A program made the translations under genes and the position numbers. A DNA stretch of 64,000 nucleotides from Eledone cirrhosa (lineage: Eukaryota): the NCBI GenBank assembly GCA_964016885.1, contig OZ024740.1, positions 166,966,001-167,030,000 on the forward strand, read 5' to 3'. A model generated the notes under the pieces. That model worked only from the letters and a program-made list of their open reading frames with translations. It had not been told where the DNA came from and made no database searches. The first letter of the stretch is position 1, and each line of letters begins with the position of its first letter. Positions 5,548-25,431 of the stretch are shown piece after piece.

Positions 5548-6130
5548 AATATTTTAGTATCGTGAGAGAGTAGAGGTTTAAGGGGATAAGCGATATATAT
5601 AGTTAGTTGCCAAAAGCTGGTGCATTTGTGATCAATACGCGTGCCTACAGGGTTAAATATCGGAGGCGTTAATATTTAGTGGGCGAGAAAGTAAGCAGAG
5701 CGGTGACAAATGAAAGGATTACAAAGGAGAATACATACTGTTAGAACATGTTTATACAAAAGTACCTACATACGTTTCGCCCTAAAAGGGCTTCTCAAGA
5801 GCATACAAATCCAGAGACTGTTCAGTATAGTACCCAGAAGGGGTTTTAAGAAGATAGTCACATCGAAGTTCATTCTTGATTCAAACAGACATGGTCGTTA
5901 TTGTCACAGAGCAAGGGGATTAACTCTTACCGGTGTTTGAATAAATGTCCCCAAATGGCTTATTATCCGTTCACATGATGTTTGTTTTCAACTACCGTTT
6001 TATGGGTGCCACTTTACTGCTGCCTAGACCAGCCAGATCTGAGAGGCATAGTTGGTGTACAGATGTTTAGTTATGCAAACTGCCCGCCGGCGCGTAATGG
6101 TTTGGTGCAGGGGGACCCAGTTTATGGTGT

Positions 6131-6727
6131 TCAGGTCTCAACTGGGGTCCAACAATAGAATGACTGCTGCATTCTGTGTCTGCAGTTTATTACGGATTCT
6201 GCTATGCTGTTGATGAGCTCAGTGGGTGCTCTTACGATATGGTAAAGTTCCATGAGGCAGAGCTGGCCCTTCCTCTTGACGTTGTAGGGTGTTGCCCTGC
6301 TGACAATTTCCCAGTATGTGGAAAAGCTAATGTTGGAGTCTTTCAATGTTGTGATGTAATTGGCGAGTGGTGTTGAGTATCTAAGCTTCTTGTTTGTAAA
6401 AGAGTAGAGATACGTTCGAAATCTAGTTTTGAACGAGCCAAAGGTGGCCCCTATATAAAGATTGACGCTATTATGGCTAGTTACGGTGCACCTATAAATA
6501 ACATTGTCTGTCATGCAGCTTCCTCTGAACGAACAGCTTCTCTTGTCTCGACAGTTGCAGTGTCGGCTGCGGTCGCTGCCGCTACGGTGGCTCATAGTTC
6601 CCGACGTAAGGCTATTACTATCACTACCTATGTTATTGTCAACGCTACCACCACTATCACCGTAATTAGTACTATTATATCCTGTAGCGCGGGCGGTAGT
6701 ACCATTATTACTCCAACGCCACAGCAC
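6131..6727 (-). pseudogene. PLE GIY-YIG endonuclease fragment with an S/N/G-rich linker
   Basis: HCNCRDKRSCSFRGSCMTDNVIYRCTV...LYIGATFGSFKTRF...QLCLMELYHI...INCRH. Confidence 0.85.
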
Positions 6728-7411: not shown

Positions 7412-7828
7412 ATATGTATAAATATTTCGTATCTCCAAACAAATACGATTTTAGGAAGCCGTAGCTATGGAGGGTGGGGGGCTACCGCCCTCTGGTGATG
7501 TCCAGCAGAAGCAAGAGGGACAACCGTCTATGCATTTCAGGCTTAACTGGCCTTCGTCAGGACGGTCCCTCTCGCCGCTTGCGACTGGCGGACTAGAAAC
7601 AGGCGAGAATATATACTTCTCTCGTCTGTGTATATAAGGTGATTAATCTCATTTGCATATGAAGCTGCATTAGTTGGCTCAACTTATAATTAAAAAAAAA
7701 TCGGATTTCGCTTCAAGCATAGCTTTATACAATATGTATAAATATTTCGTATCTCCAAAGAATTACGGTTTTAGGAAGCCGTAGCTATGCAAACACCGGG
7801 GGGATAGACGGTTGTCCTCCTTACTTCT
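7412..7828 (-). mobile_element. Retrozyme-like non-coding element, 320-bp unit (about 1.2 units) plus a short inverted piece
   Basis: 7412-7469 is directly repeated at 7732-7789 (period 320). One intact HHR and no ORF. 7804-7828 is an inverted copy starting next to the HHR cleavage site. The 3' end abuts (TA)n. Confidence 0.75.
7523..7566 (-). ncRNA. Canonical minimal type-I hammerhead ribozyme
   Basis: Minus strand ACCGTC-CTGACGA-AGGCcagttaaGCCT-GAAA-TGCA-TA-GACGGT. Helix I extends to GAGGG/CCCTC. Confidence 0.9.
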
Positions 7829-9858: not shown

Positions 9859-10038
9859 TTTTATATTCTTGTAAAAATGCGTGTCTGCTTATTTATGTGC
9901 GCCTACAGTCGCCCCTCACATATGTATGTATATATATATTTATATATGCAGAGGTTATATTTAATTTGTTGGGATTCAACAAGCTTAAAAATGTTTATAT
10001 CTGATATAAAGCACTCAACAAGTGAGTGGAGTAAATAC

Positions 10039-10360
10039 ACAATATATTAATAAATGGAAACTATATTTATAAGACTATATTTATTTCATTATATATATTT
10101 CAAGAGCAACCAAGGCTAATTATGGTGCGCTTTCATCAAATAAAATACAGATTTGTTTTATGAATAAATATTGACATACCCGGAAAAGAGACAGTCTTAA
10201 AGGTTGGAGGTTCCGGGTATGTCAATATTTATTTATTTATAAAACAAATCTGTATTTTATCTGATGAAAGCGCACCATAATTTGCCTTGGTTGCCCTTGA
10301 AAAATATATAATAAAATAAATATGATTTTATAAATATAGTTTCCATTTATTAATATATTG

Positions 10361-10361
<1 letters not shown>
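10039..10361. repeat. Inverted pair of pLTR ends (about 150-bp arms, 25-bp spacer), each arm with an HHR motif
   Basis: 10039-10185 versus 10211-10361. The same family occurs at 25333-25470 and 29885-30072. Confidence 0.8.
10254..10317 (+). ncRNA. Hammerhead ribozyme
   Basis: ATTTTAT-CTGATGA-AAGcgcACCAtaatttgcctTGGTtgccCTT-GAAA-aatata-TA-ATAAAAT. Confidence 0.7.
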
Positions 10362-10405
<44 letters not shown>

Positions 10406-10668
10406 GGAAAAAATGAAACGATATTTCATTTCCCACTCTTAGTACGGCTGTTACTTAAATATAAGTATGTACACGTACATACATATATGTATACCGACGT
10501 ACAGTAGTATGTATATATATATATACATACATGCACACATATATATATGCACGTATGGATTCACCGAACATTTATTATAATGCTCGGTGTGTTTGTAAAC
10601 AAACATCCCGTATTAAGCCGTAGTGTCTAGCAACCACCGTTGCTCGTTTGTTCAACACTGACAAAGGA

Positions 10669-10711
10669 ACGATGTACTAGTTTCAAGCTTGTTAGCTATC
10701 ATCAGCAACGT
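10669..10711 (-). ncRNA. Hammerhead ribozyme of the 422-bp unit
   Basis: Minus strand ACGTTG-CTGATGA-tAGCTaacaAGCTt-GAAA-CTAG-TA-CATCGT. Confidence 0.8.
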
Positions 10712-11405
10712 ATACCTTCCTGCCAGATTGTTGAACGTATATACTTACCTTATGCATATTAACGGCTGAGTAGCCCAATTTGCATATCGAGTGGGTTAAT
10801 CGGCCGGGTGCACCGAAAACGATAAACGGAAAAAATGAAACGATATTTCATTTCCCACTCTTAGTACGGCTGTTACTTAAATATAAGTATGTACACGTAC
10901 ATACATATATGTATACCGACGTACAGTAGTATGTATATATATATATACATACATGCACATATATATATGCACGTATGGATTCACCGAACATATTAACGGC
11001 TGAGTAGCTTGAAACTAGTACAGCGTTCCTTTGTCAGTGTTGAACAAACGAGCAACGGTGGTTGCTAGACACTACGGCTTAATACGGGATGTTTGTTTAC
11101 AAACACACCGAGCATTATAATAAATGTTCGGTGAATCCATACGTGCATATATATATGTGTGCATGTATGTATATATATATATACATACTACTGTACGTCG
11201 GTATACATATATGTATGTACGTGTACATACTTATATTTAAGTAACAGCCGTACTAAGAGTGGGAAATGAAATATCGTTTCATTTTTTCCGTTTATCGTTT
11301 TCGGTGCACCCGGCCGATTAACCCACTCGATATGCAAATTGGGCTTCTCAGCCGTTAATATGCATAAGGTAAGTATATACGTTCAACAATCTGGCAGGAA
11401 GGTAT

Positions 11406-11448
11406 ACGTTGCTGACGATAGCTAACAAGCTTGAAACTAGTACAGCGT
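11406..11448 (+). ncRNA. Hammerhead ribozyme of the 422-bp unit
   Basis: ACGTTG-CTGACGA-tAGCTaacaAGCTt-GAAA-CTAG-TA-CAGCGT. Predicted cleavage after GTA at 11442. Confidence 0.85.
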
Positions 11449-11651
11449 TCCTTTGTCAGTGTTGAACAAACGAGCAACGGTGGTTGCTAGACACTACGGC
11501 TTAATACGGGATGTTTGTTTACAAACACACCGAGCATTATAATAAATGTTCGGTGAATCCATACGTGCATATATATATGTGTGCATGTATGTATATATAT
11601 ATATACATACTACTGTACGTCGGTATACATATATGTATGTACGTGTACATA

Positions 11652-11711
<60 letters not shown>

Positions 11712-19189: not shown

Positions 19190-20996
<1,807 letters not shown>

Positions 20997-21583: not shown

Positions 21584-21637
21584 CATTCTGAGGATTGAAA
21601 GAAAATTTTATTTCTTTTAAGAAACCACTGGTAAATG
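21584..21637 (+). ncRNA. pLTR hammerhead ribozyme (GUA)
   Basis: CATT-CTGAGGA-TTGAAAGAAAattttaTTTCTTTTAA-GAAA-CCACTGG-TA-AATG. Confidence 0.85.
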
Positions 21638-25369: not shown

Positions 25370-25431
25370 ATTTCATTATACATATTTCAGGGATACCAAA
25401 TTAAATTATGGTATGCCTTCATCAGACAAAA
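25370..25431 (-). ncRNA. Hammerhead ribozyme in a pLTR end (family of 10039-10361)
   Basis: Minus strand TTTTGT-CTGATGA-AGGcATACCA..TGGTATcCCT-GAAA-TATGTA-TA-ATGAAA. Confidence 0.75.

Follow-up and report, generated by a model that had tools for sequence, protein, structure and literature searches.

What kind of event could place a non-coding 422-bp repeat in the genome of Eledone cirrhosa as two nearly identical arms lying head to head, each with its 3' end in a (TA)n tract? The insertion occupies positions 10401 to 11654 of the window, the stretch of 64,000 nucleotides that was analysed, and comprises 1.4 units on the minus strand and 1.55 units on the plus strand. Its features are as follows, with unit position 1 set at 11021 of the window.

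10353-10402, no strand: (TA)n target, left side; doubles as the 3' end of another hammerhead element (10032-10368)
10400 to 10458, minus: tail of ~59 nt, the interval separating the two end sites (unit 217-275); the other end of the locus lacks it
10401-10991, minus: minus arm, unit 104-422 followed by 1-275; 592 nt, 3' end at the distal site, tail present
10665 to 10717, minus: type I hammerhead, minus copy (core 10705-10675), with a helix I mismatch
10989-11008, minus: junction filler of 20 nt, a copy of 10755-10774 (unit 323-342), with short microhomologies on both sides
11006-11654, plus: plus arm, unit 408-422, then 1-422, then 1-~216; 656 nt, 3' end at the proximal site, tail-less
11006 to 11030, plus: 3' half of a second hammerhead (GAAA, helix III, GUA at 11020, helix I 3' strand)
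11021 to 11442, plus: a complete monomer from one cleavage site to the next; GC 38%, non-coding
11228 to 11295, plus: internal copy of the two end sites, with a predicted short hairpin (proximal site) and a predicted long hairpin just before the distal site; bounds approximate
11400 to 11452, plus: type I hammerhead, plus copy (core 11412-11442), with GUA at 11442
11654-11709, no strand: (TA)n target, right side

The repeat period is 422 on both strands, and the arms differ at four places in all (three substitutions and one 2-nt microsatellite deletion). The longest open frame in the doubled unit, which has 38% GC, is 64 codons. The preliminary description had counted 1.4 minus and 1.5 plus units with one hammerhead per unit, near-identical copies and 3' ends that both sit on (TA)n, all of which was borne out. 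It had also taken the plus arm to span exactly one monomer, from 11020 to 11442. A motif scan placed the GUA ends at both positions as claimed, and the monomer is contained in the arm; the arm, however, begins 14-15 nt upstream of 11020 and extends ~216 nt beyond 11442, so that it is not exactly one monomer. The tail is the counterpart of the tail of Penelope-like elements (PLEs) as given in the available text of PMC11167929, and the junction filler, which the preliminary description lacked, was presumably made by a template jump.

The (TA)n tract that holds the retrozyme forms the right end of a second, unrelated head-to-head hammerhead pair (10032-10368), whose 139-nt arms are 92% complementary and whose cores are both slightly damaged; intact relatives of this pair are found at other loci. 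A splice-donor-like AG|GTAAGT is present in family A, that of the present unit, at 11345-11360 (unit ~345-358), where family B has GAAAGT; PLE terminal repeats are known to contain introns. Two public sequencing runs labelled as other organisms (X6 and X7) hold contigs with family-A pieces at about 99% identity. The joint of this locus was uncovered in four other sequencing runs, which contain many other minus-to-plus joints of the family; its absence there proves nothing.

The plus-copy hammerhead has a bulged helix I, a 4-bp helix II with an AACA loop, U·U at 10.1-11.1 and a 2-bp palindromic helix III. The minus copy carries two changes that co-occur nowhere else in the genome, one of them the helix I mismatch. 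The motif had been called minimal, a term that did not hold: minimal PLE-type hammerheads lack helix III and have a helix II of 7-8 bp and a short helix I, whereas here helix II is short (4-5 bp), helix I measures 6-7 bp plus an extension, and a 2-bp helix III with a palindromic loop is present. These dimensions are those of the canonical motif as defined in the available text of PMC4209133 (helix I of ~6 bp, helix II of 4 bp, helix III of 1-2 bp and a small palindromic loop), where such motifs are described as cleaving poorly alone and well as tandem dimers. The conserved G10.1-C11.1 pair of the canonical type I hammerhead is retained as G-C in family C and replaced by U·U in families A and B, a change that may weaken cleavage. 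Among Xenopus retrozyme dimers, eight of nine are reported not to cleave in vitro (10.64898/2026.07.22.740005).

A hammerhead-like motif appeared in none of 2000 shuffles of one unit, scanned with stricter settings that detect the plus copy and miss the mismatched minus copy, while Rfam returned no match at gathering score over the whole window. Across ten aligned copies of related families (nine distinct sequences, mutually related), 91.5% of helix cells are paired, compared with 32-51% in slid controls; 6 of 17 pairs are changed on both sides, a count of covarying pairs matched in 108 of 500 shuffles. The two ends of the monomer are predicted to form a long stem that extends helix I and would keep them together for ligation. 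Nine further hammerhead-like motifs, belonging to other families, were found in the window by motif scan.

7529-7560, minus: hammerhead-like motif
19293-19338, minus: hammerhead-like motif
21588-21633, plus: hammerhead-like motif of PLE family H
25377-25425, minus: hammerhead-like motif
29979-30028, plus: hammerhead-like motif
38801-38845, minus: hammerhead-like motif of an 894-codon PLE family
44896-44936, plus: hammerhead-like motif
45082-45137, minus: hammerhead-like motif
48614-48669, minus: hammerhead-like motif

To what size of family does the unit belong? In 2,996 Mb of genome, a 34-base hammerhead pattern had 13,211 exact matches and a subfamily-specific pattern 1,600, with none for the reversed controls. 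A looser pattern without the U at 10.1 matched at 10,797 more places, mostly family C among the 100 matches listed. Exact end junctions numbered 409 and 1,242, counts that are not comparable because the two patterns differ in haplotype breadth. Hundreds of head-to-head insertions of the 422-base repeat are present in the genome. Family B (466-538 bp) can be aligned along the unit and family C is 62% identical to it over 200 bases; a more distant relative with a different hammerhead, 63-74% identical to the unit, was seen at L039 (900-1420) and L270 (2840-3130). The loci described below are a sample and no census, drawn from the best matches and, for several patterns, from the first positions along contig C1. 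Among the sampled copies, none takes the form of a pLTR attached to a PLE ORF, and the 1,600 subfamily matches show the unit to be far from single-copy. Together with the mapping of ends, the match counts support the earlier account of a young, high-copy, non-coding hammerhead retrozyme with a PLE-style inversion.

The unit shares with metazoan non-LTR retrozymes a tandem arrangement of 150-450-bp repeats, each with a single type I hammerhead, a non-coding sequence, low GC, the lack of an LTR, and many dispersed copies with a target duplication of more than 4 bp where one is present. Two consecutive complete hammerheads, which define an active retrozyme in the available text of 10.64898/2026.07.22.740005, are found at many sister loci; this locus has one complete hammerhead per arm plus the 3' half on the plus strand. 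The locus is a genuine, young retrozyme of known class whose PLE footprint is well supported, and the element itself is a further member of an already described class.

Where the arms end was assessed on 193 arms of at least 90% identity lying away from a stretch edge. The 3' ends fall at unit 271-276 in 92 arms, at 211-223 in 81 and elsewhere in 20, many of the last being alignment chains broken by microsatellite growth. The spacing of the two sites, measured between the ends of the microhomologies, is 59 nt. A script gave 63 head-to-head rows, from which three duplicates were removed (L065, a tandem copy; L114 and L154, double-counted). Of the 60 inverted insertions that remained after curation by hand, 54 have one end of each kind, 50 called by the script and four by hand (L081, L089, L131 and L156); the exceptions are L161 (219/219), L097 (275/283), L056, L140a, L150 and L153. 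When only insertions with both ends at or adjoining a site are considered, 54 of 56 are one of each (p = 4e-14 against independent choice). In L084 and L131, copies of family C have their ends at the two corresponding positions and carry similar hairpins at the same ends as family A, both judged by eye.

Target duplications were sought in 51 pairs. In targets that are imperfect repeats, five measure 13, 13, 13, 14 and 15 bp and a sixth 21 bp; 38 pairs are uninformative, being pure repeats, and seven lack an anchor. The duplication at the present locus is among those that cannot be read because its target is pure (TA)n. Some very short insertions conceal a tiny second arm. Very short insertions at L107, L118 and L120 (~1050-1250 or 6000-6160) are bordered by few-base copies of the proximal start site, repeated between TA runs, which looks like repeated abortive priming and is reminiscent of telomerase-like repeat addition. 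A coupling of arm lengths (rho 0.29, p 0.04, 51 rows with one duplicate) was weak and was not used as evidence.

Two start sites are also known for a PLE protein. When purified, this protein, as described in the available text of PMC11167929, cuts AT-rich DNA, extends both strands and starts at two internal RNA sites, and the genomic tail corresponds to the sequence that separates them; a dimeric form of the protein is predicted, and uncleaved RNA is the main substrate in vitro. Two observations of that study run counter to the reading given below: no difference in start site between the two strands was seen, and cleavage was unnecessary for insertion. PLE tails of 30-40 bp, often at one end, and inverted copies are likewise on record (PMC8557442, PMC3846280). 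In the genome under study, autonomous PLE family N has ORFs of 1277-1290 codons with RT and GIY-YIG domains (Pfam, window copy), and the Atlas neighbours of its protein are RT/GIY-YIG proteins. Its end sites lie 55-60 nt apart; at 20 loci, all 14 two-ended insertions have one end of each kind and six show one end only. The ends of family H (714 codons) are ~60 nt apart, and a third PLE family has a tail of ~96 nt (by eye). The 59-nt spacing of the retrozyme fits family N or H, candidate helpers that both have a ~60-nt tail. Family N, found at 41222-43400 of the window as a broken copy and at L217-L219, is very young, since dozens of copies share an identical RT-segment score and open frames reach ~1290 codons.

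The retrozyme insertions thus share with endonuclease-bearing PLEs two internal start sites for the RT, a tail at one end and head-to-head inversion (PMC11167929, PMC8557442, PMC3846280), together with a target duplication, a preference for AT-rich (TA)n targets and a hammerhead upstream of the start sites. Unlike these PLEs, the retrozyme has no ORF and its tail is ~59 nt rather than 30-40 bp. The one-of-each rule is near strict and countable in the retrozyme, whereas the available text of the PLE papers has the tail as optional or often one-ended.

Among 120 PLE loci, none had a terminal repeat that the unit matched. Clear unit matches occur at 11 PLE loci, and the nine viewed are separate insertions, bounded by TA tracts or far from the ORF. 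No pLTR match for the unit emerged from protein searches and 40 larger stretches, which covered PLE families other than Naiad and Poseidon. When 131 retrozyme loci were screened with the PLE proteins of the window, no RT and GIY-YIG ORF was found between or beside the repeats; the PLE matches that were viewed near retrozyme loci lie downstream of the units, two of three split off by a TA tract. At L043 (3400-5050), 1.9 retrozyme units are joined directly, with no TA tract, to an inverted piece of PLE ORF, a chimera that could have arisen either when the RT switched between helper and retrozyme RNA or through a later deletion.

Were both arms copied from one RNA? Across 52 inverted insertions, 55 of 1,327 polymorphic-site comparisons between the two arms of an insertion are discordant (4.1%), compared with 13.8% when different insertions are compared. 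Rare variants at 106 loci (leaving out L038, L065, L148 and L158 as old or duplicated) comprise 26 that are fixed in all covering units of their own insertion, 14 mosaic and 236 singletons; 16 of the 26 fixed variants, in 11 insertions, are on both arms. Two insertions were followed genome-wide. In L069, A344T is present in all nine covering units on both arms; L069 holds eight of the 17 genome matches, and the other nine are lone units of other haplotypes in arrays or copies otherwise without A344T. In L141, a four-change haplotype is present in three units on both arms, and all three genome matches are in L141. No source array with either haplotype exists in the assembly. A circular or multimeric RNA template, as first suggested, is supported by these private haplotypes and sharpened toward one monomer copied repeatedly.

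The 5' ends bear on the form of that template. Only one of 166 arm 5' ends falls at the cleavage site, where 2.75 are expected (seven broken-chain arms dropped); run-off at a cleaved 5' end was rejected on this count, which also lends no support to a special significance of the span from cleavage site to cleavage site. The 5' ends at unit 404-412 are not in significant excess (7 against 3.5 expected, p 0.07). The site is read through in 126 of the 166 arms, and exact joins are found at 310 of 313 unit junctions, which fits a ligated circle or a multimer left uncleaved better than jumps between cleaved monomers. In young two-armed arrays each arm has several units that are nearly identical, every unit having 0-2 private changes, and arms reach 12.7 units; arm length alone is no proof of rolling-circle copying because older arrays (L158, L038) grew in place. 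Overall, the evidence for repeated copying of one RNA is fair as judged from these sequences, with the qualification that a source array may be missing from the assembly and that gene conversion can act between inverted arms. Among older insertions, L158, L038, L070-L071 and L035-L036 have become satellite-like arrays, with higher-order periods of two and four units.

Two further ideas were set aside. That the arms of this locus derive from two different RNAs was suggested by a difference between the arms at unit 326, where T seemed to be a family variant; that T is found in 12 of the 12 best-match loci and in 2 of the 80 remaining loci reflects search bias. The hammerhead variant of the minus arm is unique, which makes later mutation or RT error likelier than two RNAs. 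Editing of the template from A to I was considered because A>G accounts for 9 of 26 fixed and 28 of 236 singleton changes (p 0.005), yet A>G and T>C show no strand bias (p 0.56, four old or duplicated loci dropped). Clusters of A>G fixed in all units of both arms were noted in L141 (5446-5867), L139 and L138. Two public runs presumed to be RNA yielded only AT-rich scraps.

The locus is one insertion of a non-coding, high-copy hammerhead retrozyme, and we consider it likely that the endonuclease and RT of a PLE made it by priming each DNA end at one of two fixed sites on a single RNA, probably a 422-nt circle. Of the parts of this reading, priming of PLE type at two sites is very probable from the mapped ends; one RNA for both arms is probable, if less firmly so; and a circle is the form of that RNA to which we lean. 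Transcripts of tandem copies would self-cleave as hammerhead dimers at GUA, and a host ligase would circularise the monomers, as PMC7229834 argues for other retrozymes. Staggered cuts ~13-15 bp apart would then open both strands of (TA)n, each DNA 3' end priming at one site through 2-5 bases of TA microhomology. A dimeric RT would copy the RNA repeatedly from both ends, and the 5' ends of the two cDNAs would be united by microhomology. Here, the copy begun at the distal site would have run for 1.4 units, skipped the hammerhead to add a further 20 bases and met, within helix II, the 1.55-unit copy from the proximal site.

The same two-site priming by a PLE could have used a linear, uncleaved multimer transcribed from a source array of uniform units, or two RNAs stemming from a single dominant source, with the hammerhead in a minor role. 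We think this unlikely. The reading through of the cleavage site by most arms agrees with it, as do the mosaic arrays, a common A317T haplotype (20 of 114 loci, many of them young arrays) and the role of uncleaved RNA as the main substrate of a PLE in vitro (PMC11167929). A multimer would need a source array with the haplotype of L069 or L141, however, and none exists in the assembly; 5'-truncated copying can only shorten arrays, yet arms reach many units; and the helices covary across families, if only to a degree also reached in 108 of 500 shuffles, which sits poorly with a minor hammerhead. More doubtful still is expansion of short insertions in DNA, by unequal exchange, with gene conversion between inverted arms spreading the private variants. 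Higher-order periods in L158 and L038 speak for such growth, as do C89T, present in the minus units of L158 and absent from its plus arm, and the long, diverged single-strand arrays (L070, C12); young two-armed arrays would nonetheless require two expansions plus conversion before mutations accumulate, and the fixed ends would be left unexplained.

The second arm could instead have been copied from the first cDNA after it folded back, or have begun by self-priming on an antisense template, an origin that PMC3846280 puts forward for Penelope. A fold-back copy would carry the same haplotype, and four of 60 joints (L052, L083, L140 and L158) are palindromic with equal 5' ends. Most joints, though, unite unrelated unit positions, the longer arm can be either, and at the target the second arm terminates precisely at the other fixed site and is accompanied by a duplication; we consider this origin very improbable. 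Least credible is that the unit is the pLTR of an autonomous PLE and the copies its truncated ends. All pLTR traits are present in the unit (hammerhead, tail, TA target), Xenopus retrozymes are related to pLTRs (10.64898/2026.07.22.740005) and the L043 copy adjoins a PLE fragment without a TA tract. Each unit is nevertheless preceded upstream by another unit and never by the 3' end of an ORF, and young PLE families have other hammerheads. For the present copies, identity with a pLTR is thus largely refuted, and remote pLTR ancestry is likely. The reading that we retain is priming of one RNA at two fixed sites by PLE machinery.

The family resembles metazoan non-LTR retrozymes in its non-coding tandem units with one type I hammerhead each and no LTR, its GC under 45-50%, its thousands of copies and the presence of PLEs in the same genome (PMC7229834; 10.64898/2026.07.22.740005). 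It differs from those described in that its insertions are mostly two-armed with two fixed 3' sites, in its U·U at 10.1-11.1 and in being known here from DNA alone; at 422 nt it is slightly above the described retrozyme RNAs (170-400 nt) and within the 150-450 bp range. A circular RNA template and a PLE helper have been proposed for retrozymes (PMC7229834), and the co-occurrence of retrozymes with PLEs and their kinship to pLTRs are reported in a study that calls the insertion mechanism unresolved (10.64898/2026.07.22.740005). The words inverted and rolling do not occur in the available main text of PMC7229834, nor does tail in that of 10.64898/2026.07.22.740005. No report of fixed two-site, one-of-each retrozyme ends or of single-template haplotypes was found in a literature search of mainly open-access papers.

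In twin priming of LINE-1, both target strands prime to give an inverted insertion with both 3' ends outward; the second primer acts at variable internal places and the arms barely overlap. Both strands are likewise primed in the retrozyme, but at sites that do not vary, and each arm is a copy of the same stretch, in many cases made several times over.

Competing models exist for how the PLE tail and PLE inversion arise, and the retrozyme family leaves countable footprints of insertion and of both features. As the RNA, the two start positions, the target and the candidate helper ORFs can be named, the model is open to a direct test in the in vitro assay that exists for PLEs. We give an even chance to a broader proposal, in which each inverted insertion records a single asymmetric reaction: a PLE RT dimer on one circle, at two sites ~59 nt apart, with both subunits rolling and with the U·U ribozyme deliberately slow so that the circle is kept intact. 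If true, this asymmetric reaction on one circle would explain the PLE tail, head-to-head inversion and the birth of retrozyme arrays in a single step.
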